Shown here: positions 572 through 41,816 of the stretch, piece by piece
Layout: every line of letters begins with the position of its first letter
How positions within the stretch are numbered: position 1 is the first letter of the stretch
IMG/VR virus record: IMGVR_UViG_2711768005_000013
Reading direction: 5' to 3' (one strand)
Source: a virus
Taxonomy: Duplodnaviria > Heunggongvirae > Uroviricota > Caudoviricetes
Length of the DNA stretch: 44,601 nt
Position numbers and translations under genes: made by a program
Notes under the pieces: generated by a model
What the model saw: only the letters and a program-made list of their open reading frames with translations
Database searches by the model: none
What the model was told of the DNA's origin: nothing

Positions 572-3500
572 TCAACGAATACTGATGCCGGAAGCCGCTT
601 TTTTGGTCACAATCACCGTACAGTCGGTGATATTGCCTGCCCCCTGATTGCCTTTCTGGAAAATCTTAAACTCCAGAGTGACGCTACCACCACCACTAGG
701 CATATCAATAACTGCACTGTAACTACCGGGAATGGCCCCTTTAGTTTCTCTGGATGCGATTAATACGCCGTTTTTGCGAACTTCAAAACCATAACCCGTG
801 TATCGCGTGCCTCCTGGGTTATTTCCGCTCCCCGGATCGTCATACGCTATACCGTTAAAAATAATGGGCGGAATAATAATCTGGCGGTCAAAGTTATGAT
901 CATCGCTGATGGTGACTGTAACCGTACCGTCTGGTGTTTCCGTGTTACCCCACGTACCGACTTTTTTCGGGAAGGCTTTTGATACAGCTTTAACGAAATC
1001 CCCTCTGACCTGGGTCGCCTCCAGCATGCCCTTAATCGTACAGTTCTGGTTAATCGTGACATTGTTGAGCGTTCCTGAGTTCGCATTCACACTACCACTG
1101 ATATCCGCATTTTTAGCGGTCAGCTTTCCGTCTGATGTCAGGGAAAATACCGGAGGACTGCCACCGCTGGTAATGGCGGGGGCTGTCAGGCGCTTCAGGA
1201 ACACGTCGTTCATGAATATCTGGTTGCCCTGCGCCACAAACATCGGCGTTTCATTCCCGTTTGCCGGGTCAATAAACGCGATACGGTTAGCGGCAACCAG
1301 AAACTGGCTCAGTTTGCCTTCCTCCGTGTCCTCCATGCTGAGGCCAATACCCGCGACATAATGTTTGCCGTCTTTGGTCTGCTCAATTTTGACGCCCCAC
1401 ATCGCATTCCATTTATCGTTAGCGTCCTTCCACTCTTTCGAAAACTCATCCAGTCTGCTGGCGTTATCCTCCGTCAGATCAACTTTTTCCAGCAGCTCTT
1501 TACCGAGATGGGATTCGGTTATCTTGCCTTTGAAAAAATCCAGGTAACCTTCCGCATCATCGCTCGCCCGACCGACGGCCTCCACGAATGCCGATTTGCC
1601 AACGGTGTTCACACTGCGGATATAAAAGTAATAATCATGGCCCGGTTTGATATTGATACTGGCGGCTATCCAGTACAGCCCCGCGCCAAGGTAGCGGGCT
1701 GTGGTTTCAACCTGCCTGATATCGGTAATCCGCGTTTCCGAGAACCAGAACTCAAACTGTACCGTCGGATCATAAACCGCAAGATGCGGCGTGGCAGTTA
1801 TCTGAAAATAGCCCGGCGTCAGCTCAATCCGCGACGGTGCTACCGGTGCGGCAATCCTGAACGATACCGACGCCGGATCGCCCTGCTGTCCCCAGGCATT
1901 TACCGCCCGGACTGTCAGCGTGTACCGTCCCAGCGCCAGTTGCGTGAAGCGGTATGTGGTTTCCGTCGTCCGGGCCGTGCTGACCAGCCGCTCACTGCCG
2001 TCATCCGCTGCCACGGTCAGGCGAAGCATAAAGCTCACCCCCTTCACCACCTTCGGCGTGTCCCAGCGCGCCAGCACCTGATATTCCCCGCTGTCTGCGG
2101 TGACTTCGGCAGTCAGGTGCTGCACCGCTGGCGGCGTGACACCATTCACCGTGCCGCTCTGGTCGCCGTCAAAGTGCGCCCCGTTATCCACGATGGCTTC
2201 TTTTTCCGGTACATGCTGCACGGCAGTGATGGCATACGTGCCGTCATCGTTCTCACGGATACTCACACAGCGGAACAGGCGCTGGCGCAACGTCGGCAGC
2301 TTCAGCCCCCACACGCTGTATTCAGCAACGCCGTCAGGAACACGGCTCACTTTCACCTTCACGCCGTCGGTGACGGACTGAACCTCCACGCTGACCGGAT
2401 TGCCACTTCCGTCAACCAGGCTTATCAGCATGGTACCGGAGGATGGCAGCGTGATTTCACGGTCGAGCGTCAGCGTCCGGGTCTGGCTGTTTACCGCCAG
2501 CACGCGCCCGCCGATGCTGATACCCGCATAGTCATCATCACAGATTTCAATGACATCGCCCGGCACATGGCGAAGCCCTTCTGCGCCCACGCTGAAGTCC
2601 ACGGTCTGCGTTTCCAGCAGTTCTGTTTTAATCAGCCACAGCCCGGCGCGGTGTGCCTGCCCCCGGCNNNNNNNNNNNNNNNNNNNNNNNNNNNNNNNNN
2701 NNNNNNNNNNNNNNNNNNNNNNNNNNNNNNNNNNNNNNNNNNNNNNNNNNNNNNNNNNNNNNNNNNNNNNNNNNNNNNNNNNNNNNNNNNNNNNNNNNNN
2801 NNNNNNNNNNNNNNNNNNNNNNNNNNNNNNNNNNNNNNNNNNNNNNNNNNNNNNNNNNNNNNNNNNNNNNNNNNNNNNNNNNNNNNNNNNNNNNNNNNNN
2901 NNNNNNNNNNNNNNNNNNNNNNNNNNNNNNNNNNNNNNNNNNNNNNNNNNNNNNNNNNNNNNNNACAGCGCATCGCCGAGCAGAAATCACTGAGCACATC
3001 CCACGCCTTGCGCTGTGTGGTCAGGTACGCATTACAGGTGATGCGCGGCTCCGTGCCGCCAAAGCCGTCCGGCACTGACTGGTCGCAGTACTGGCCGATG
3101 ACATACAGCGCCCATTTGTCCACATCCGCCGCACCAAGACGTTTCCCCATGCCGTAGCGCGGGTGGGTCAGCATATCCCACAGACACCAGGCCATGTTGT
3201 TGCTGTATGCTGGTTTTAACGTTCCGTCCCAGATACCGCTGTATTGTCGCGTCTGCGGGTTATAGTTCGACGGCACCTGCAGAATGCGCCCGCGAAGATG
3301 ATAATTACGACTCACCTGCTGGCTGCCGAACTGCTCCGAGTCCACCTGTACGCCGACCAGTGCAGTGTTCGGGTAGCACTGTTTCACATCGATGATTTCG
3401 GTGTATGACGACCAGAGCGTTTTGTTCTGCAGCTGGTCTGTGGTGCTGTCCGGTGTCATCCTGCGCATCCGGATACTGAACGGGCGCGGAGGCAGGTTAT

Positions 3501-4008
3501 CCACCACCACCGAGACCAGATACTGCGAGGTGGTTTTGCCCTTAATGGTGATGTCTTTTTCCGTCACCCAGCCACCGTTACGCTGTATCTGAACCAGCAG
3601 GCGGACTTCCGACGGATTCCTGTCTCCCTTTGAGGTGGTTTCCACCAGTGCCTGTACACCGAAGGTAAAGCGCAGACGGTCGATGTTTGCCGACGTGATG
3701 GTCCGGGTGATCGGCGTGTCATATTTCACTTCCGTACCCAGCACCGTCTCGGAGCCGGAGGATTCAAACCCCTCCGGCGGTGACTGCTCCTGCTCACCTG
3801 CCCGGAACACCACCGTGACGCCGGAGATGTTGGTATTCCCCTCATTGTCCAGCACCGGCGTACTGTTCAGCAGCACGCTTTTTAATCCATCCACCGGACC
3901 TTCAACCGGCCCTTCACTGATGGCATCGATCACACTCAGCAGCTGCGTGGACTTCAGGTTGTCCTTCGCTTCGCGCGGGGTATGCCCCTTACTGCTGCCT
4001 TTACCCAT
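572..4008 (-). CDS. J: Tail tip / host specificity protein J (interrupted by an N run)
   Basis: N-terminus [34 protein letters not shown] matches lambda J; conserved central region; C-terminal about 150 aa diverges from lambda J; total length not a multiple of 3 because of the N run. Confidence 0.9.
2669..2964. other. Run of N (unresolved or masked sequence) inside J
   Basis: Contiguous n characters in the sequence. Confidence 1.
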
Positions 4009-17980: not shown

Positions 17981-19288
17981 TTAAATCCGAAGTGATGTGA
18001 CTCTTCCGGTCGGTTTGACAATAGGGAATTGCTTAACGATGAAATAACCTCCGGCATCATTCGGGTGATCATTGCCAGATTTTTTATCAGGCTCCCCCTT
18101 CTCATCCCAGACCTGTTGCTCCAGAGATTCGGCATATAACGGGCAACGCTTCACATTAACTTTATAGCGACGCTCACCATTGGCATTGCAGAACATTGCA
18201 TTCATTGAGTTAACGCGATCTTTTACTGGCGGGTTCGAGCTGTTCACCACAACGTTAAAACCAGCCTGCTTAAGCTGGGCTATATCCGTCGTACTTGCGT
18301 TACTTGATTTTCTGGAATCCCCGGAAGCATCTGGATAAATATAAATTTCCCTCACTTTCCGGTAATCATTCCCATCATACAGCCAGAAGCGTTCTTTAAT
18401 GATGCGGATCATATCCGGCGTATCGTAGGCATTGATGATTTCAGTTACCGCACATGGAAGCCCCAAACGCAGCACATGGACGATTCCCGCCATCTTTCCA
18501 ACGTTAAAATCCATCCCAATATAAATCGGCTCCCCTGGCTGCTCCACTTCTTCGCAATTATTCAGTTTCCGGTCAAACTGATGGTAAACAGTACCACTTG
18601 TCAGGTTAGTAAACTGTCCTCGAAGATAGGCTTTAATCAGCTCTGGAGGGTATGATTCAAGAAGCGAAGGAATGTAATCTGCTGGCAGGTTCTTTTCATT
18701 ATCGAAAGTAGATGCCTGCACCAGACCATACAGTGAGGCCAGCTCTGTTTTTTCACGCACGGCTTTAACAAACTGCTCGTAGACAAATTTGAATCCTTCC
18801 GGCGTGGTTGTAACGTCAATACCGTTGCGAAGTCCATCAATCTTATAACGCATACGTGCAATTATCTTGCGCCACGCCGTTCTGGCTTTTTCCTTCGGCA
18901 AAATGTCCAGTTCATCCACCAACGCATTACCAATTTTGAAACCGACGATCGTTTGTGGCTTCTCCATCGATCTGCAGATAGTGGTTCCCCGATACTGGCG
19001 TCCGTAATAAAAGTGAACCTCTTTATTTCCCTCATTAATTTTTACGTTCAATCCCCAGTCAGCAGCAACTTCTTCCACTGTAGGGTAAAAAATATCGCGA
19101 ATTTGGGGATACGTTGGCGCAAAATATCCCTGATTTATACCTGGATGCTCCCAAATCCCCTTGCATATGCCGCCACACCCAACCCATGTTTTGCCCGAGC
19201 CAAAACCAGCAATATAGGCTTTAAATTTATGGGGCATTGAAAGAAATCGCGCCTGAGGCACATTAAGCGTCGGAGAGATCATCTTCAT
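17981..19288 (-). CDS. Terminase large subunit
   Basis: Walker A-like AGFGSGKT near the N-terminus, acidic C-terminal nuclease-like region; start taken at ATG 19286-19288 (ORF-track GTG at 19291). Confidence 0.8.
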   Translation of the reverse strand: MKMISPTLNVPQARFLSMPHKFKAYIAGFGSGKTWVGCGGICKGIWEHPGINQGYFAPTYPQIRDIFYPTVEEVAADWGLNVKINEGNKEVHFYYGRQYRGTTICRSMEKPQTIVGFKIGNALVDELDILPKEKARTAWRKIIARMRYKIDGLRNGIDVTTTPEGFKFVYEQFVKAVREKTELASLYGLVQASTFDNEKNLPADYIPSLLESYPPELIKAYLRGQFTNLTSGTVYHQFDRKLNNCEEVEQPGEPIYIGMDFNVGKMAGIVHVLRLGLPCAVTEIINAYDTPDMIRIIKERFWLYDGNDYRKVREIYIYPDASGDSRKSSNASTTDIAQLKQAGFNVVVNSSNPPVKDRVNSMNAMFCNANGERRYKVNVKRCPLYAESLEQQVWDEKGEPDKKSGNDHPNDAGGYFIVKQFPIVKPTGRVTSLRI

Positions 19289-20612: not shown

Positions 20613-21498
20613 TTGTCACCCCCATTGATATGCAGGGTGTCTTCTTCCTGTATTTTTCGTGAAGGATTTTTACTGCAGCGTTGTTCCAGGTGACCTGATG
20701 GTGAATGCGTTTATGACTGGCACCCATAAGTGAGATTTTTACGCACGACGGCGCATACATGACGGAGTAAAAACTTTTAACGTAGGTTCCGGAATCCAGA
20801 TACAGCTCGGTCATTCCGCCGCTGTTTTTCTGCGTCTGTTTCTGCCCTAACTGGACAGCACCGATCGTCATAAACAATTCACCACAGCGACCGAGATTCG
20901 TGTACGTATTCACATCCTCGTTAATGCGCCCCATGAATGAGAACGGTCGATCAACCGAACAGATAAAGCTGTTCATTGCCTTGCGTTTCACCCACGAAGC
21001 ATGGCCGCCATTGTCACCAAGAAAATCCCCGCCCTGCGACATAGCGATGGAAAGAGCAGGTATTGATTCGTAGTACGCAAGCATTTCAGAAAGGATCTCA
21101 TCCAGTTTCCTTATCGGGAAATAGGCCTGGTCATAGTTGCGATCCACCCGAAACTGGAACTCGTGATAATCATCATCGAGCTGAATGAAGTATTTACACC
21201 CGACCAGTTTTGCCTGGTCGAAACAGGCATTACGGGCGTAAAAAATTGAGCGGCGGTCACTAAAATTATCGGCTTCGTCAAAACGACTAGCAATATCGGC
21301 TTTGGAAAATACCAGCACCTGTTCACCAAATTCAGCCATGTACTGATGCCGTGTCTTATCTTCATCATCAACAACGATAAAAATTTTCCCGGTATAGCCA
21401 GCACGACGCAACGTCCGGTAAGTCAGAACTTTGTCCGGTCGCCCGTGAGTCAGAATAAAGGCGCAAAAATCATCACGCATATTCCTCCTCCCCGCCAT
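20548..21498 (-). CDS. Putative GT-A-fold glycosyltransferase-like protein
   Basis: N-terminal FILTHGRPDKVL...IFIVVDDED and a DxD-type motif YFIQLDDDY; assignment from motifs only. Confidence 0.35.
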   Translation of the reverse strand: MAGRRNMRDDFCAFILTHGRPDKVLTYRTLRRAGYTGKIFIVVDDEDKTRHQYMAEFGEQVLVFSKADIASRFDEADNFSDRRSIFYARNACFDQAKLVGCKYFIQLDDDYHEFQFRVDRNYDQAYFPIRKLDEILSEMLAYYESIPALSIAMSQGGDFLGDNGGHASWVKRKAMNSFICSVDRPFSFMGRINEDVNTYTNLGRCGELFMTIGAVQLGQKQTQKNSGGMTELYLDSGTYVKSFYSVMYAPSCVKISLMGASHKRIHHQVTWNNAAVKILHEKYRKKTPCISMGVTNDSVFESRVSGSVPDDCTTNR

Positions 21499-24458: not shown

Positions 24459-24946
24459 TGCTGACCCCACAAACAGATTTCACGCTCAATCTCACGACGA
24501 GTCATGAGACCTTTCCATTGCTTACCGCCAGCATATGTCCAGCGACGTAGCTGATCACATGCGCCTTTGATATCGCCCTGGTTTATTTTGCGANNNNNNN
24601 NNNNNNNNNNNNNNNNNNNNNNNNNNNNNNNNNNNNNNNNNNNNNNNNNNNNNNNNNNNNNNNNNNNNNNNNNNNNNNNNNNNNNNNNNNNNNNNNNNNN
24701 NNNNNNNNNNNNNNNNNNNNNNNNNNNNNNNNNNNNNNNNNNNNNNNNNNNNNNNNNNNNNNNNNNNNNNNNNNNNNNNNNNNNNNNNNNNNNNNNNNNN
24801 NNNNNNNNNNNNNNNNNNNNNNNNNNNNNNNNNNNNNNNNNNNCCAGACCATCGTTACCACTTGGGCCAGTGATTAACACTGATGCTATAGCAATTGCTC
24901 CGCCACCAATAGCAGCAGCAACGACTTTTCGTAATGATGGAGGCAT
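24455..24946 (-). CDS. SAR endolysin (phage 21 R-type lysozyme), interrupted by an N run
   Basis: N-terminus [34 protein letters not shown] (signal-anchor-release domain) and C-terminus [38 protein letters not shown] match the phage 21 lysozyme. Confidence 0.85.
24595..24843. other. Run of N inside the endolysin gene
   Basis: Contiguous n characters. Confidence 1.
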
Positions 24947-25161
24947 TATTCACCTCTCGCAGCCTTGCGCTTATCTTCTTTAATCTTGAAATAAAGGTTT
25001 GTCAGGTACGTCAGCAGGCCAAATACCAGACTACCCAGCACACCGATTGCAGCCCACTGTGACGGAGTTACTCTATCGAGCAACTGTAAAAACCAGTAGC
25101 CAGCACTGCCTGCGGAGGTGCCGTAGGCAATGCCTGTTGAAATTTTGTCCATGGATTTCAT
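24946..25161 (-). CDS. S21-type pinholin with dual start (Met1/Met4)
   Basis: [45 protein letters not shown]... closely matches phage 21 S; GGAGGTG SD 7 nt upstream; ATG codons at 25159-25161 and 25150-25152. Confidence 0.8.
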
Positions 25162-28860: not shown

Positions 28861-29140
28861 TTCTCAATCTCTCGATGGCGCAGCGCAGCAGATGCCAGTT
28901 GTTCAGGCTGACGAATAAAGTATAAATAAACTGGCTATGGTGTAAAGCCCCACATAGCATGAACAAACACTACATATCAAATAGCTGGTACAAGGATAGA
29001 AATACGACACTTATTATTAAAAACGATTAGATAAATTACATTTTAATGTTATGCAAAAGTTCTTTTTTATCATAACATTTCAATAAAAGCATTACAGATG
29101 CAATCATCCCGTCATCATCAATTATTTAAGGTGGTTAAAC

Positions 29141-34026: not shown

Positions 34027-34806
34027 TTACTTCTCAATTCCTGGCTGGACGACATTCGGACGCCAGCTCTCCCAGTTAAAATTCACCCATCGCCCGCCGT
34101 NNNNNNNNNNNNNNNNNNNNNNNNNNNNNNNNNNNNNNNNNNNNNNNNNNNNNNNNNNNNNNNNNNNNNNNNNNNNNNNNNNNNNNNNNNNNNNNNNNNN
34201 NNNNNNNNNNNNNNNNNNNNNNNNNNNNNNNNNNNNNNNNNNNNNNNNNNNNNNNNNNNNNNNNNNNNNNNNNNNNNNNNNNNNNNNNNNNNNNNNNNNN
34301 NNNNNNNNNNNNNNNNNNNNNNNNNNNNNNNNNNNNNNNNNNNNNNNNNNNNNNNNNNNNNNNNNNNNNNNNNNNNNNNNNNNNNNNNNNNNNNNNNNNN
34401 NNNNNNNNNNNNNNNNNNNNNNNNNNNNNNNNNNNNNNNNNNNGATAGCTGCCGCTAAGTGGTTCTTCCCGGTACCAGGTTTTCCGCTGAACGCAAAATT
34501 TGTACACCCGGTCATCAGTTCATCAGCGATGGATTTCGCCTGACTCAACGCGTATCGCTGCGCTTCGTTCTGCACCTGGTAATTCGAAAACGAGCATTTG
34601 CGGTGCAATGGCTGGATGCCAGAGCGATTCAGAATTTTTTCCACCCGCAACTGACGATTCTGACGGTTGATCTCCTCACAACGTTTCTGGCCTTCGGAAA
34701 GTTGCCACTCGCGCCACTCCGCTACCGTCTTGAATGGCGCGGTTACATGTGACGGGGCCAGTCTGCGGATACGTTCAAGAACGTCGCCTGTCGCAATATT
34801 TTTCAT
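34027..34806 (-). CDS. ydaV: DnaC-like replication / helicase loader protein, interrupted by an N run
   Basis: Walker [16 protein letters not shown]; position after ydaU-like gene as in Rac. Confidence 0.7.
34101..34443. other. Run of N inside the DnaC-like gene
   Basis: Contiguous n characters. Confidence 1.
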
Positions 34807-34812
34807 GGTCAG

Positions 34813-35670
34813 TTACCCCCTGAAGCCTGGCGGGATCGCACTATCCGGTAACGAGACGGTGTTAACCTGTCGGAGTAACGTCTCAGGTCGAACACCTTTC
34901 GGCGCGAACAAGCCCTGGTATTCATTGGCGATGCTGTGTCGAATCACCTGCTCAGGTGAAAAACCCTGCTGGCGGAATTTTTCCAGCTCCCGTATCGCCC
35001 CGTTAGCGCCCTGCTCCGTTCGAATCGGTTTTCGCAATGCCTGGCGAAATTCAACCCACTCACGCCAAAGCGAGACAGAAATCCAGTTCGGCAAAGCAAT
35101 ATCCAGAGGGTCAAACTTTTTGACACCTCGATTCCCCCGGGGGGGATTTAGGGGGGGATCTGTTTTTAGATCTTTATCTGTATCTTTATTAGTTGCCTTT
35201 GTGTTGACATCATGTTCAAACACCACTTCAACATCTGTTTGAACACCTGTTAAATTTCTCTCTTGTTTTGTTTGAACATCTGCTTCCTTTCTGCTTCTTC
35301 TGGCCTGAACAGATGCTTTTCCTGCGGCTGATTTTTTGGTTAATTTTTCCCTGACTGATGCCAGATCTTCCTCAATCCGAAGATGCACCCATTCCTCGCC
35401 GTTATCGCAAAAAAACTCCTGCAAGGATGGTTCAACATCAGCCCATCGCTCGTTAGTCAGACGGGCAATTTTTGCCAGCCTGTTTTTAGGTATTGGCTTT
35501 CCTGTTTGCCAGTAATTGAACATCAGCAACAAATACGCACCATGCTCCTCTGCTGACAAATGCATGGTGTCAGCCAGGTAATCAGCTATGTACAGTTGCA
35601 TGTATGGTAATGCGGCCATAATTGCCCCGTATGATGCTGCCCGGTGGCTTAGAATAAGCACAAACAGCAT
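34813..35670 (-). CDS. ydaU: Replication-module protein YdaU-like
   Basis: 285 aa as I recall for Rac YdaU, in the Rac position; alternative start ATG at 35617-35619 (MAALPYMQ). Confidence 0.55.
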   Translation of the reverse strand: MLFVLILSHRAASYGAIMAALPYMQLYIADYLADTMHLSAEEHGAYLLLMFNYWQTGKPIPKNRLAKIARLTNERWADVEPSLQEFFCDNGEEWVHLRIEEDLASVREKLTKKSAAGKASVQARRSRKEADVQTKQERNLTGVQTDVEVVFEHDVNTKATNKDTDKDLKTDPPLNPPRGNRGVKKFDPLDIALPNWISVSLWREWVEFRQALRKPIRTEQGANGAIRELEKFRQQGFSPEQVIRHSIANEYQGLFAPKGVRPETLLRQVNTVSLPDSAIPPGFRG

Positions 35671-35682
35671 GGAAACTTTTGC

Positions 35683-36105
35683 TTAATGAACAATGACAGA
35701 ATCGTCGGAAGACCCGCCGCCGCTGAAATGCGCTTTCCGGTAAACGGCTTGGACTGCATCATCATGCGCATCAATTGCCGTACTTAACGCTTCCTGCGCC
35801 GCCAGTAATGCACGGCGTTCCAGGGTATCGAAGATGCAGAGTCGGTGACGCAGCTCGCGCGGAAGGATTGCCAGAATTGCTGGGATCAGCTTCTGAATTT
35901 TTTCTCTTTGCGTTTTCGTTTCACCTTTCAACCAACGGTGATAGATATTCTGCTGATTATTCCAGTCCTTGCCTGGTACCAGGGGCAATTCGCCGCCCCC
36001 CTGGCGCAGATATTCTTCAGTAATGGCATTGGCTACCCATGCCTGCCCTTTTTCGGCTGCCAGGGCTAACAACACTGACTCGATGTGCTCATGCTTGATT
36101 TTCAT
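35683..36105 (-). CDS. ydaT: YdaT-like protein
   Basis: 140 aa, matching recalled YdaT length and position downstream of ydaS. Confidence 0.6.
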   Translation of the reverse strand: MKIKHEHIESVLLALAAEKGQAWVANAITEEYLRQGGGELPLVPGKDWNNQQNIYHRWLKGETKTQREKIQKLIPAILAILPRELRHRLCIFDTLERRALLAAQEALSTAIDAHDDAVQAVYRKAHFSGGGSSDDSVIVH

Positions 36106-36356
36106 GAATCAACTCCCATCAGCTTTTTCGTAGTAGTTTTATTTCTGCCAATAGTTAAAATTACATCAGCAGAAAATAATCCGTTTGATGCATGAGCGAT
36201 TTTTTCAGCGTAATTTGTTTCGCCGGTATATTCTGTGCGAGGCAATTTTCCGTTATCCATCCATTTGTAGATTGCTCTTTGGCTGACACCACAAACGTCG
36301 GCCACAACAGAAACGCGAACAGTTTTGATTACATCTTCAAGTGTTTTCTGGTTCAT
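36102..36356 (-). CDS. ydaS: Cro-like HTH protein YdaS-like
   Basis: HTH segment VADVCGVSQRAIYKWM; start taken at ATG 36354-36356 with GAGGG SD (ORF-track start 36428 is upstream); divergent from racR. Confidence 0.55.
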   Translation of the reverse strand: MNQKTLEDVIKTVRVSVVADVCGVSQRAIYKWMDNGKLPRTEYTGETNYAEKIAHASNGLFSADVILTIGRNKTTTKKLMGVDS

Positions 36357-36417
36357 ATCACCCTCACAATGTGAACTTTGAGTACATGCTATAACAGAAC
36401 TGACAGTACATTCAAGA

Positions 36418-36855
36418 GTGAATATCATTGAACTTATGGTTCATGAAGATAAAGCGCGTAAAGAGTTCGCCAGTAGGCTTGCGCTAGCCTGTGAAAACGC
36501 TGGTTATGAACAACATGGAAGGCAGGCAGAAATTGCCCGTCGAATGAAATTAACACCAAAAGCGGTTAGCAAATGGTTTAATGGCGAAACAATTCCTCGC
36601 CGAGAGAAATTAAGGGAATTAGCAACACTCATTGGAACAACACCAACCTATCTTTTGGGAGAGGATACAGAAGAAAGTGGACAGGTACGTTTCTATCAGG
36701 AGTTAAATCCAAGACAAAAAATCATCATTGACCTTCTGGACGAGCTCCCTGACAGTGAGACAGATGAACTTTTAAAAACTCTTGAGGAGAAAAAACAGAA
36801 GTACAATGCAATTTACGAAGAGCTAGCACGAAAGAAAAAACAAAAAGCCTCTTAA
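36418..36855 (+). CDS. racR: Prophage repressor RacR-like (HTH)
   Basis: HTH segment RQAEIARRMKLTPKAVSKWFNGETIP; divergent to ydaS; start codon uncertain (GTG 36418 or ATG 36436). Confidence 0.6.
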   Translation: MNIIELMVHEDKARKEFASRLALACENAGYEQHGRQAEIARRMKLTPKAVSKWFNGETIPRREKLRELATLIGTTPTYLLGEDTEESGQVRFYQELNPRQKIIIDLLDELPDSETDELLKTLEEKKQKYNAIYEELARKKKQKAS

Positions 36856-37145
36856 ACCAGCATAAATCCGGTAGCGTCCCCCTCCGGGTTTGTGCTTCAC
36901 TTTATCCCATCTCATTTTTTTACACACAAAATGTACTTATAGTACTTTACATCAATGAACACAAAGTACATTATATACCTACCAACCCACCCCGCCCCAC
37001 AGAACGCAGGGCAATACTTCGAGTTACCAGGCAGTGGTCAGGGGTTAAGTAGCCAGCCCGAGGCGTATGAACATGACGGCAGGGTTCAGATTTTGCAGTG
37101 CAGCAGGTTTCAGTTCCGCCACCCGGCGTTAAGGGGAGAGATAAG

Positions 37146-37280
37146 ATGGTGCATTACGAAGTAGTTCAGTATTTGATGGATTGTTGCGGTATCACTTACA
37201 ACCAGGCTGTGCAGGCTTTACGCAGCAACGACTGGGATCTCTGGCAGGCAGAAGTCGCTATACACAGCAACAAGATGTGA
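37146..37280 (+). CDS. ydaG: Small protein YdaG-like (44 aa)
   Basis: MVHYEVVQYLMDCCGITYNQAVQALRSNDWDLWQAEVAIHSNKM; Rac position. Confidence 0.55.
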   Translation: MVHYEVVQYLMDCCGITYNQAVQALRSNDWDLWQAEVAIHSNKM

Positions 37281-37290
37281 GATTCGCAAA

Positions 37291-37446
37291 ATGCAAAAAA
37301 TCGACCTCGGCAACAACGAATCCCTGGTGTGCGGCGTGTTCCCCAACCAGGATGGAACGTTCACTGCCATGACGTATACCAAAAGCAAAACATTTAAAAC
37401 CGAAACTGGTGCGCGCCGATGGTTGGAGAAGCACACAGTAAGCTAA
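37291..37446 (+). CDS. ydaF: Small protein YdaF-like (51 aa)
   Basis: MQKIDLGNNESLVCGVFPNQDGTFTAMTYTKSKTFKTETGARRWLEKHTVS; stop overlaps convergent sieB stop. Confidence 0.55.
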   Translation: MQKIDLGNNESLVCGVFPNQDGTFTAMTYTKSKTFKTETGARRWLEKHTVS

Positions 37447-37931
37447 CGATTAAAACGTCTACTCCTGCTGTTCCAGAATAACTTCATAAAATGGGAGTAT
37501 TTTTCGGTGACGAGATAATAAGAACAGTTTGCGCTATCACTCTGATGTTGAATGATGCCCTTCCGTTCTAATTTTTTCATAACCGGGTTACGGCAAGGAG
37601 AAGTGATAATAAGATTTCCTGTTTTAAGGAAATCTTTAAATACAGCGATTTCTTTCTCAGATAAACGAAGCAATACTCGTTGCTCTGGTAGTAATGAATA
37701 ATGCTTTTGAATATGTGCTCGCAATCTTGAGAAGGAAATGGCGACCACGAAAGAAAAGGCAAAAACGATAATCTGAAAGAGCCAAGGTATTTCAGTATAA
37801 GCATTGAATGCGACAGTAAACTCTTTCGGTATCAGCCAGAGAGTGAGACCAAAAATGATAATCGTATACATAAGTATTTCGAGTGGCTCGTTAGCAAAAA
37901 GTTTCAACAATGGAGTAAATACATCCAACAT
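37443..37931 (-). CDS. sieB: Superinfection exclusion protein B
   Basis: 162 aa from ATG at 37929-37931 (MLDVFTPLLKLFANEP...) with membrane segments; Rac position. Confidence 0.7.
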   Translation of the reverse strand: MLDVFTPLLKLFANEPLEILMYTIIIFGLTLWLIPKEFTVAFNAYTEIPWLFQIIVFAFSFVVAISFSRLRAHIQKHYSLLPEQRVLLRLSEKEIAVFKDFLKTGNLIITSPCRNPVMKKLERKGIIQHQSDSANCSYYLVTEKYSHFMKLFWNSRSRRFNR

Positions 37932-38372
37932 ATCAATAACTCTCAACTGTAAGGGTATTGAAATGTTAACACAAGCTCTCGCTGTAGGGGTATAGCCGAG
38001 ACCACCGAAGCCCGGAGGTGGTGAAATAAAACCGGGCACAACACGAAGGCGCATTTCCGATATCCATAAAGAGTCGGTCTTGTCTGTTAAATTTAAATGG
38101 TGGGAGTGCGCCTCCGGTTGTAAATAACGACATTGCTGTGTGTAGTCCTGGCGGCATCAGTTTTTTTCTTGAAGTTCGGCTGATGTCCGCCCTTTTTAAA
38201 GTGAATTTTGTGATGCGGTGAATGCGGCTAAGCGCACGTGGCACAGTTAAAAGTCATGTTAGTCCTTATTGGTTTGGGTGGGAAAGCCGACTGTAATTGT
38301 TAACTGGTTGCAGTCACCTGGAGGCACCAGGCACCGCATCAACAAAGTTCATTTGTAAAAATGGAGATAATT

Positions 38373-38594
38373 ATGATTGCACATCACTTCGGAACTGATG
38401 AAATACCACGTCAGTGTGTGACTCCTGGCGATTATGTTCTTCATGAAGGCCGGACATATATTGCCTCGGCAAACAATATTAAAAAGCGAAAACTATATAT
38501 TCGTAACCTGACCACAAAAACATGCATTACTGACCGCATGATTAAAGTCTTCCTCGGTCGTGATGGTTTACCTGTAAAGGCGGAGTCATGGTGA
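38373..38594 (+). CDS. kilR: Cell-division inhibitor KilR
   Basis: 73 aa [73 protein letters not shown]; GGAG SD. Confidence 0.8.
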
Positions 38595-38763
38595 TGACTA
38601 AGAAAATAAAATGTGCTTACCACCTTTGCAAAAAAGACGTTGAAGAAAGCAAAGCTATTGAAAGAATGCTTCACTTCATGCACGGGATTTTATCAAAAGA
38701 CGAACCGAGAAAATATTGCAGTGAAGCTTGTGCCGAAAAAGACCAGATGGCACATGAACTTTA
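38594..38763 (+). CDS. ydaE: Small Cys-rich protein YdaE-like (56 aa)
   Basis: [19 protein letters not shown]...YCSEACAEKDQMAHEL; in-frame ATG also at 38588. Confidence 0.55.
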
Positions 38764-38838
38764 ATTAATTGACTATTCGAAACTGAATTTATGCCAGAAA
38801 TGGCAGGTATTCGCTCAACCTTAATTAAGGAGAAAAAC

Positions 38839-39114
38839 ATGATTACCAATTATGAAGCCACTGTTGTAACTACCGATGACATTGTTCACGAGGTGAATCT
38901 GGAAGGAAAGCGCATTGGCTACGTAATTAAAACAGAAAATAAAGAAACCCCATTCACTGTGGTTGATATCGATGGTCCATCAGGCAACGTAAAAACACTT
39001 GATGAAGGTGTCAAAAAAATGTGCCTGGTGCATATCGGAAAGAATCTGCCCGCAGAAAAAAAAGCCGAATTTCTGGCAACTCTAATTGCAATGAAATTAA
39101 AAGGTGAAATCTGA
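38839..39114 (+). CDS. racC: RacC
   Basis: 91 aa from ATG with AAGGAG SD (MITNYEATVVTTDDIVHEV...); immediately upstream of recE. Confidence 0.65.
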   Translation: MITNYEATVVTTDDIVHEVNLEGKRIGYVIKTENKETPFTVVDIDGPSGNVKTLDEGVKKMCLVHIGKNLPAEKKAEFLATLIAMKLKGEI

Positions 39115-39215
39115 AAGAAATAGCCTGCGTATGGCGCAGGCTATGAACAGTGTGTATCCGGCAAGATCATTCACTGAACAAAACGAATTTTAATCTGAGT
39201 TGAGGTTAAAAAACA

Positions 39216-41816
39216 ATGAGCACAAAACCACTCTTCCTGTTACGGAAAGCGAAAAAATCATCCGGTGAACCTGACGTCGTCCTGTGGGCAAGCAACGATT
39301 TTGAATCGACCTGTGCCACTCTGGACTACCTGATCGTTAAGTCAGGTAAAAAACTGAGCAGCTATTTTAAAGCTGTTGCCACGAATTTTCCTGTCGTTAA
39401 TGACCTGCCCGCTGAAGGTGAGATCGATTTTACCTGGAGTGAACGCTATCAACTCAGCAAAGACTCCATGACATGGGAACTAAAACCGGGAGCAGCACCA
39501 GACAACGCTCACTATCAAGGCAATACCAACGTCAACGGCGAAGACATGCCTGAGATTGAGGAGAATATGCTACTCCCAATTTCTGGCCAGGAACTGCCCA
39601 TTCGTTGGCTTGCTCAACACGGCAGCGAAAAACCGGTAACGCACGTTTCACGCGACGGACTCCAGGCATTACACATTGCTCGGGCTGAAGAACTACCGGC
39701 TGTTACTGCCCTGGCTGTTTCCCACAAAACCAGCCTGCTCGACCCGCTGGAAATTCGCGAACTCCACAAACTGGTTCGTGACACTGACAAAGTTTTCCCT
39801 AATCCTGGTAATTCAAACCTGGGACTGATAACTGCTTTTTTCGAAGCATACCTGAACGCTGACTACACCGATCGAGGACTGCTGACAAAAGAGTGGATGA
39901 AGGGTAATCGTGTTTCACACATCACTCGCACGGCTTCCGGTGCTAATGCTGGCGGCGGAAACCTCACCGATCGCGGCGAAGGTTTCGTACACGATCTGAC
40001 GTCACTGGCGCGGGACGTAGCCACTGGCGTACTGGCCCGTTCAATGGATCTGGACATCTATAACCTTCATCCGGCACACGCTAAACGCATTGAGGAAATT
40101 ATCGCTGAAAATAAACCGCCCTTTTCTGTTTTCCGCGACAAATTCATCACCATGCCTGGCGGGCTGGATTATTCCCGCGCCATCGTGGTTGCGTCCGTAA
40201 AAGAAGCACCAATTGGGATCGAGGTCATCCCCGCGCACGTCACTGAATATCTGAACAAAGTACTGACTGAAACCGATCATGCCAACCCTGATCCGGAAAT
40301 CGTGGATATTGCCTGCGGTCGCTCCTCTGCCCCGATGCCGCAGCGAGTAACAGAAGAAGGAAAACAGGATGATGAAGAAAAACCGCAACCATCTGGAACA
40401 ACGGCAGTTGAACAGGGAGAGGCTGAAACAATGGAACCGGACGCAACTGAACATCATCAGGACACGCAGCCGCTGGATGCTCAGTCACAGGTAAATTCTG
40501 TTGATGCGAAATATCAGGAACTGCGGGCAGAACTCCATGAAGCCCGGAAAAACATTCCATCAAAAAATCCTGTCGATGCCGATAAATTGCTTGCTGCATC
40601 ACGTGGTGAATTTGTTGACGGAATTAGCGACCCGAACGATCCGAAATGGGTAAAGGGGATCCAGACTCGCGATTGTGTGTACCAGAACCAGCCAGAAACG
40701 GAAAAAACCAGCCCGGATATGAATCAACCTGAGCCAGTAGTGCAACAGGAACCGGAAATAGCCTGCAATGCCTGCGGCCAGACTGGCGGGGATAACTGCC
40801 CTGACTGTGGTGCGGTGATGGGCGACGCAACATACCAGGAAACATTCGATGAAGAGAGTCAGGTTGAAGCTAAGGAAAATGATCCGGAGGAAATGGAAGG
40901 CGCTGAACATCCGCACAATGAGAATGCTGGCAGCGATCCGCATCGCGATTGCAGTGATGAAACTGGCGAAGTCGCAGATCCCGTAATCGTAGAAGACATA
41001 GAGCCAGGTATTTATTACGGAATTTCGAATGAGAATTACCACGCGGGTCCCGGTGTCAGTAAGTCTCAGCTCGATGACATTGCTGATACTCCGGCACTGT
41101 ATTTGTGGCGTAAAAATGCCCCCGTGGACACCACAAAGACAAAAACGCTCGATTTAGGAACCGCTTTCCACTGCCGGGTACTTGAGCCGGAAGAATTCAG
41201 TAACCGCTTTATCGTAGCACCTGAATTTAACCGCCGGACAAACTCCGGAAAAGAAGAAGAGAAAGCGTTTCTGAGGGAATGCGCAAGCACAGGAAAAACG
41301 GTTATCACTGCCGAAGAAGGCCGGAAAATTGAACTCATGTATCAGAGCGTTATGGCTTTGCCGCTGGGGCAATGGCTTGTTGAAAGCGCCGGACACGCTG
41401 AATCATCAATTTACTGGGAAGATCCTGAAACAGCAATTTTGTGTCGGTGCCGTCCGGACAAAATTATCCCTGAATTTCACTGGATCATGGACGTGAAAAC
41501 TACGGCGGATATTCAACGATTCAAAACCGCTTATTACGACTACCGCTATCACGTTCAGGATGCATTCTACAGTGACGGTTATGAAGCACAGTTTGGAGTG
41601 CAGCCAACTTTCGTTTTTCTGGTTGCCAGCACAACTATTGAATGCGGACGTTATCCGGTTGAAATTTTCATGATGGGCGAAGAAGCAAAACTGGCAGGTC
41701 AGCTGGAATATCACCGCAATCTGCGAACCCTGGCTGACTGCCTCAATACCGATGAATGGCCAGCTATTAAGACGTTATCACTGCCCCGCTGGGCTAAGGA
41801 ATATGCAAATGACTAA
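39216..41816 (+). CDS. recE: Exonuclease VIII RecE
   Basis: 866 aa; C-terminal nuclease domain; overlaps recT start (ATGACTAA). Confidence 0.9.

Follow-up and report, generated by a model that had tools for sequence, protein, structure and literature searches.

The immunity region of phage HK022, with cI, cro, the operators OR1-3 and OL1-3 and the promoters PR and PL, is described in GenBank X16093 and by Carlson and Little 1993 as cited in PMC8053113. HK022 CI binds cooperatively at adjacent sites and loops OL to OR (PMC8053113). In the Rac prophage of E. coli K-12 the repressor gene racR is divergent from the cro-like gene ydaS, which is followed by ydaT (PMC9638921, PMC5700373). The footprinted RacR operators have the form (T/A)TAGGC-N3-GCCTA(T/A) and are three inverted repeats with 3-bp spacers, the third lying over the repressor ATG, and the footprints cover the racR-ydaS intergenic region only (PMC9638921). 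A lambdoid switch with OR is also found in the cryptic prophage CP-933P of E. coli O157:H7, which encodes PaaR2, YdaS and YdaT; in this switch the repressor and the Cro-like protein each repress OL/PL, and the repressor is encoded by a leaderless mRNA and has no obvious route of SOS cleavage (PMC8630535). Additionally, phage Tritos (prophage 3 of E. coli LF82, OV696610) forms plaques, and its CI is transcribed 24-fold above the local background in the LF82 lysogen; Tritos is absent from the prophages reported as ciprofloxacin-induced (PMC9928086).

The stretch of DNA analysed here, which we call the window, is 44,601 nucleotides long (44.6 kb) and contains runs of N, i.e. masked or unresolved sequence, at positions 2668-2964, 24594-24843 and 34101-34443, the last of which falls in the part with a match to K-12 ydaU-ydaW, immediately to the left of the studied block. 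Based on blastn, positions 34444-36111 and 36980-40000 are 99.4-99.5% identical to the Rac prophage of K-12, whereas no K-12 match was obtained for the interval between them. This interval of 868 bp stands in for 1059 bp of K-12 and comprises exactly the part from cro through PL, with all five predicted operators inside it (Table 1). Its right junction with K-12-type DNA, at 36980, lies approximately at the predicted +1 of PL. Two segments within it, 36186-36596 and 36915-36975, are 69.7% and 82% identical to HK022, respectively. In K-12, racR is flanked by TAGGC-N3-GCCTA repeats of the RacR type, which occupy the positions corresponding to OR and OL. The operators on both sides thus switch along with the repressor, as expected if both sets are cognate sites. 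The module was found in 1049 of 5426 complete E. coli genomes (19%), including LF82, and in three E. coli SW0716 strains, which are wastewater isolates, an insertion of the IS4-like element IS421 splits the same region. In the literature searched, nothing ties the Rac prophage to HK022 immunity.

In the racR-ydaG gap of K-12 (NC_000913.3, about 1419626-1419689; positions 3627-3690 of the extracted locus) we observed a near-consensus promoter, TTGACA-17-TATAGT, that faces ydaG and overlaps the RacR-type repeats TTAGGCATAGCCTA and TTAGGCATTACCTA and a weaker one, TTAGGTTACGCTCA. Judged by their sequence, these repeats and the promoter look like a K-12 counterpart of OL/PL downstream of racR; neither ydaG, ydaF nor RacR sites on the downstream side of racR are mentioned in PMC11879457.

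Table 1. Features of the switch region and of the adjoining genes in the window. Operators and promoters are predictions; scores are those of the position matrix trained on HK022 operators, and operator centres are given relative to the repressor ATG.
Feature	Coordinates	Strand	Size or sequence	Description
Swapped immunity module	36112-36979		868 bp	Cro-like gene, OR/PR/PRM, repressor, hairpin, OL/PL; delimited by blastn against K-12 and HK022
ydaT (cII-like), K-12 type	35683-36105	-		First PR-operon gene beyond the module; Pfam YdaT_toxin; block 99.4% identical to K-12
Cro-like gene	36102-36356	-	84 aa	62% identical to HK022 Cro, E 2e-34
OR1	36371-36387		GTGAACTTTGAGTACAT	Just downstream of the PR -10; contains heptamer 36381; score 16.8; centre -57
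Predicted PR (cro-like gene, ydaT)	36388-36415	-	-35 TTGAAT 36415-36410; -10 TATAGC 36393-36388	TG before the -10; homology with HK022 pR
OR2	36395-36411		CAGAACTGACAGTACAT	Between the PR -10 and -35; contains heptamer 36405; score 14.9; centre -33
Predicted PRM	36400-36428	+	CTGACA-17-TATCAT	-10 ends 7 nt before the ATG; promoter scan, 10/12 matches
OR3	36428-36444		TTGAACTTATGGTTCAT	Across the repressor start codon (ATG 36436-36438); score 20.1, the window maximum; centre 0
Repressor gene	36436-36855	+	139 aa	HK022 CI-like HTH_3 N-terminal domain and short helical tail; no Peptidase_S24
Stable hairpin	36859-36896	+		After the repressor stop codon, before OL/PL; fold -19.7 kcal/mol, z = -4.07
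OL2	36931-36947		ATGTACTTATAGTACTT	Inverted heptamer and 6/7 variant; abuts the PL -35; score 18.5; homologous to HK022 oL 2225-2239
Predicted PL (ydaG-like, ydaF, genes beyond)	36946-36974	+	TTTACA-17-CATTAT	Promoter scan
OL1	36955-36971		ATGAACACAAAGTACAT	Between the PL -35 and -10; contains heptamer 36965; score 14.2
ydaG-like gene	37146-37280	+		First gene downstream of PL
ydaF	37291-37446	+		Downstream of PL, after the ydaG-like gene

The two divergent genes occupy the positions of racR and ydaS and had been named so in a preliminary description of this DNA, but they are not orthologues of these genes. In BLASTP the repressor shared 12/33 identities with K-12 RacR, and the protein of the divergent gene 6/18 with K-12 YdaS. 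In addition, K-12 RacR operators (TAGGC-N3-GCCTA) are absent from the region, the sole match with one mismatch in the window, at 25124, being at chance level. The published work on RacR and YdaS, which had been applied to this locus, is therefore not transferable to it at the sequence level. Over residues 4-102 the repressor and HK022 CI are 47.5% identical, and the predicted recognition-helix segments are near-identical (TPKAVSKWFNGE in the window repressor, TPKAISKWFNGE in HK022 CI). In Escherichia phage Tritos an identical protein (100%) is annotated as CI, and the repressors of vB_EcoS-673R7, 613R10 and 666R9 are 99.3% identical. Window positions 36082-37137 are 96% identical to Tritos. 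All four are complete virion-forming phages and differ from the window in their flanking genes, with a Rha-family regulator in Tritos in place of ydaT. Operators are not annotated in the two regions of the Tritos/vB_EcoS group that were examined, and those of Tritos are not described in the literature searched.

The preliminary description had correctly placed the heptamer AGTACAT on the plus strand at 36381-36387, 36405-36411 and 36965-36971, its inverted form ATGTACT at 36931-36937 and a 6/7 variant, which is AGTACTT, at 36941-36947, with the upstream pair in the divergent promoter region. Its proposal that these heptamers are operator half-sites at both ends of the repressor gene agrees with their inverted partners and with the match to the HK022 matrix. 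The heptamer as the full unit did not stand, the operator being most probably a 17-bp pseudo-palindrome, ATG(A/T)ACT-N3-AGT(A/T)CAT, and a fifth site, OR3 over the ATG, had been overlooked. At a spacer of 3 bp the inverted partners of the four clustered heptamers match at 5, 4, 6 and 5 of 7 positions, in contrast to 1/7 only for the stray AGTACAT at 21338. At other spacers the inverted partners match mostly at 0-3 positions, with two spacers attaining 4 and 5. Exact matches to the core TGWAC-N5-GTWCA number three in 44.6 kb and all lie at the switch region; with at most one mismatch there are 12 in the window versus 3.9 expected, a number attained in 0/100 shuffles; five of these 12 lie at the switch. 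A cluster of ATCCCCA near 19051 was also checked for repeats and showed nothing notable.

The repressor sites of HK022 annotated in X16093 (n=5), TGAACCATAAGTTCA (twice), TGTACTATCAGTTCC, TGTACTTAAAGTTCA and AGTACCAATAGTACA, belong to the same family as the window sites, TG(A/T)AC-N5-GT(A/T)CA. HK022 operator facts were taken from this annotation and from PMC8053113, and a position matrix was trained solely on the five annotated operators. Over the 44.6 kb, this matrix ranked the five window sites 1-5 (scores in Table 1), the next score being 11.4, whereas composition-preserving shuffles gave a mean of 0.39 matches with a score of at least 14 and at maximum two such matches within 700 bp. The matrix also recovered OL3 and the far-right operator of HK022, both of which were outside the training set. 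The 15-bp core of OR3 is identical to the HK022 oR sites 3000-3014 and 3057-3071, and the centre spacings of 24 bp (OR1-OR2), 33 bp (OR2-OR3) and 24 bp (OL2-OL1) all equal those of HK022. The assignment of the five sites as operators is thus well supported by these matches, and we consider it highly probable that a Rac prophage here carries a lambdoid immunity switch of the HK022 type, with five 17-bp operators of which the heptamers form the better-conserved half-sites. The best operator-like match outside the switch, ATGAACAAACACTACAT at 28959-28975, is probably due to chance, as shuffles reach a higher maximum on average (13.1) than its score of 11.4.

We compared the locus with those of E. 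coli FORC_081, Tritos, 673R7 and a metagenomic variant, Klebsiella phage 2b, Citrobacter phage Omnitron, Salmonella phages S9-5 and SI8 and a Salmonella genome. The OR centres lie at -57, -33 and 0 from the repressor ATG in the relatives, except in SI8 (-56, -32 and 0), and apart from this 1-bp shift the offsets are shared with HK022 and seven relatives. In an alignment of seven OR sequences the invariant columns are concentrated in the half-sites. In Tritos and 673R7, the two examined for this, all five operators are at the same offsets and differ at spacer positions only. Similarly, the variant with an 89%-identical repressor has 0 substitutions in 50 core half-site positions and its operator changes are confined to spacer or outermost positions, whereas positions 36872-36924 are heavily diverged.

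Phages with a full-length, S24-bearing CI have OL3-OL2-OL1 with spacings of 53 and 24 bp, whereas loci with a short repressor have OL2-OL1 only. OL3 was found in HK022 and in the Citrobacter and Salmonella phages with full-length CI, and the far-right operator in HK022. In the window no matrix match of at least 7 was obtained for OL3 at the expected place, 53 bp from OL2, or for a far-right operator, expected about 270-300 bp right of OR. The presence of OL3 tracks with an S24-bearing CI, and its absence with a short repressor, in a small sample of three full-length loci (HK022, Omnitron and S9-5, which were compared against the window repressor locus) versus about five short ones. In a Salmonella genome (GCA_028156025.1, ABKIOY010000006.1; extracted locus 2053-2720) a HigB-toxin/HTH pair was observed between a 65%-identical short repressor gene and OL2/OL1, a layout that resembles paaR2-paaA2-parE2 of CP-933P. 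The operators of CP-933P are 18-bp palindromes of the GTTTAGTAA type, and in this operator consensus CP-933P differs from the window switch.

The hexamers of HK022 pR and pL are also annotated in X16093. PR was not called by the consensus promoter scan and was placed by alignment with the annotated pR hexamers; with this placement, OR1 and OR2 bracket the predicted PR -10 and touch its -35, an overlap shared with HK022. The scan independently put PRM and PL on operator sites. The predicted PL can be aligned with pL as annotated in HK022; the -35, TTTACA, is common to both, and the -10 of pL is CATCAT. As in HK022, OL1 occupies the PL spacer and OL2 borders on the PL -35. The PRM -10 columns are conserved in the alignment of 7 phages. 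Since this -10 ends so close to the ATG and no Shine-Dalgarno sequence precedes the ATG at 36436, the repressor mRNA is probably leaderless. The predicted PRM -35 sits inside OR2 (centre about -33), unlike the lambda arrangement that permits activation, and the control of PRM may therefore differ from that in lambda. None of 200 shuffles was as stable as the hairpin after the repressor gene, which the terminator scan missed because the T-run does not adjoin the stem. This hairpin may be the terminator of the repressor transcript, insulating PL from PRM read-through.

Judged by homology to HK022 and lambda, dimers of the CI-like repressor would bind OR1 and OR2 and turn PR off, which would silence the replication genes together with ydaT and the cro-like gene. 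Repressor at OL1 and OL2, covering PL, would likewise shut off the ydaG, ydaF and kilR/recET side. At OR3, over the start of the probably leaderless message, the repressor could regulate its own gene or the Cro-like protein could shut this gene off; the latter protein is expected to recognise the same sites. We infer binding, occupancy order, cooperativity, OL-OR looping and promoter starts from these two systems, and looping is possible in the window switch. The distance between OL and OR is about 530-580 bp (about 0.55 kb) in the window and about 0.7-0.8 kb in HK022. The genes controlled also differ, with ydaT after cro and the Rac genes ydaG, ydaF, kilR and recET downstream of PL in the window, and nun in HK022.

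The repressor itself also differs from that of HK022. HK022 CI has 235 aa and matches Peptidase_S24 at 2.6e-19, whereas Pfam detected HTH_3 only in the 139-aa protein, and the similarity between the two stops just before the QASAGPG segment of HK022 CI. In the AlphaFold model (pLDDT 82.8) the C-terminal tail, about residues 85-139, forms three helices, the last of which is 33 residues long. A Foldseek search of the PDB with this model gave generic XRE HTH matches only, among them small phage repressors and SinR at non-significant E-values and high rmsd, and nothing informative for the tail; a sequence search of the PDB gave only a marginal match to the N-terminal domain of P22 C2. The tail is conserved in Salmonella homologues of 138 and 151 aa (62-65% identity). 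The absence of Tritos from the ciprofloxacin-induced prophages fits a non-cleavable repressor, but is no proof of it. We tentatively suggest that the protein belongs to a distinct short lineage of HK022-type repressors, in which S24 has been replaced by a conserved three-helix tail of ~55 residues, the paired 24-bp OR and OL sites have been kept and OL3 and the far-right operator have been lost in the cases seen, but we put this forward with less than even confidence.

In lambda CI, the S24 C-terminal domain provides the contacts for dimerisation, cooperativity and oligomerisation. As this domain is absent from the window repressor, cooperativity and looping, as assumed in the model, may not apply to it. 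A serious competitor to the full model, to which we nevertheless give somewhat less than half of our credence, is that the sites are mainly targets of the Cro-like protein, or act as pairwise operators only, with local repression intact and no long-range interaction between OL and OR. The missing source of higher-order contacts, the missing OL3 and the uninformative tail in the fold search all point in this direction. However, HK022 CI does loop OL and OR (PMC8053113), the paired 24-bp spacing is retained in the short-repressor lineages, and the predicted three-helix tail with its long last helix could mediate oligomerisation.

It is very unlikely that the whole switch is a relic, in which truncation has left the 139-aa CI inactive and the operators are conserved solely by recent common descent. 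The full-length relatives do have an S24 domain that is missing here, OL3 and the far-right operator are absent, and the prophage resembles Rac, which is cryptic in K-12. However, the same protein is the CI of Tritos, a plaque-forming phage that expresses it in the lysogen. Moreover, the tail is conserved in the Salmonella homologues, the module is as frequent in complete E. coli genomes as described above, and the operator cores are kept while the adjacent non-coding DNA diverges.

Clustering of the heptamer is by itself weak evidence. With five copies of AGTACAT versus 3.79 expected in the whole window, and at least five in 34/100 shuffles, its total is unremarkable; four of the five copies fall inside 591 bp (Poisson P about 2.5e-7 for a pre-specified word), but ~30 other 7-mers likewise reach at least four copies per 600 bp somewhere in the window. 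The stand-alone clustering statistic was dropped for this reason, and the 17-bp unit and the HK022-trained matrix were used instead. That an AT-rich word has clustered by chance in AT-rich promoter DNA, with no protein recognising it, is scarcely credible in view of the inverted partners at a fixed 3-bp spacer, the top five scores from an independently trained matrix, the same positions in relatives from four genera (E. coli, Klebsiella, Citrobacter and Salmonella) and the cores that are kept beside diverged flanks. Equally improbable is a role of the sites as RacR operators of the K-12 type that control the toxic genes ydaS-ydaT: the location between ydaT and ydaG in a Rac prophage and the three inverted repeats with 3-bp spacers, one over the ATG (PMC9638921), are common to both switches, but the operator sequence is unrelated and both proteins are non-orthologous, so that this reading is refuted at the sequence level.

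An HK022-type CI/Cro pair is thus present where annotation by position had given RacR/YdaS, and this error is now corrected. Rac prophages have at least two unrelated immunity types, and the results obtained with K-12 RacR, i.e. its operators, C-protein cross-talk and essentiality, should therefore not be extended to the 19% of genomes with the HK022-like module. Exact coordinates of the predicted operators and promoters can now be given for the switch in the Crohn's-associated strain LF82 (phage Tritos). The finding of the operators is by itself textbook, an ordinary lambdoid switch, and the repressor without S24 is a modestly interesting side issue. If a short repressor lineage does exist, any cooperativity or looping would need another oligomerisation surface, and induction would not proceed via RecA-mediated cleavage, but e.g. 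via an antirepressor or by switching that is purely stochastic. As its recognition helix nearly equals that of HK022 CI, such a repressor might then give about one in five E. coli genomes cross-immunity to HK022-type phages. A natural HK022-type repressor without S24 could also reveal the share of this domain in lambdoid cooperativity and looping.
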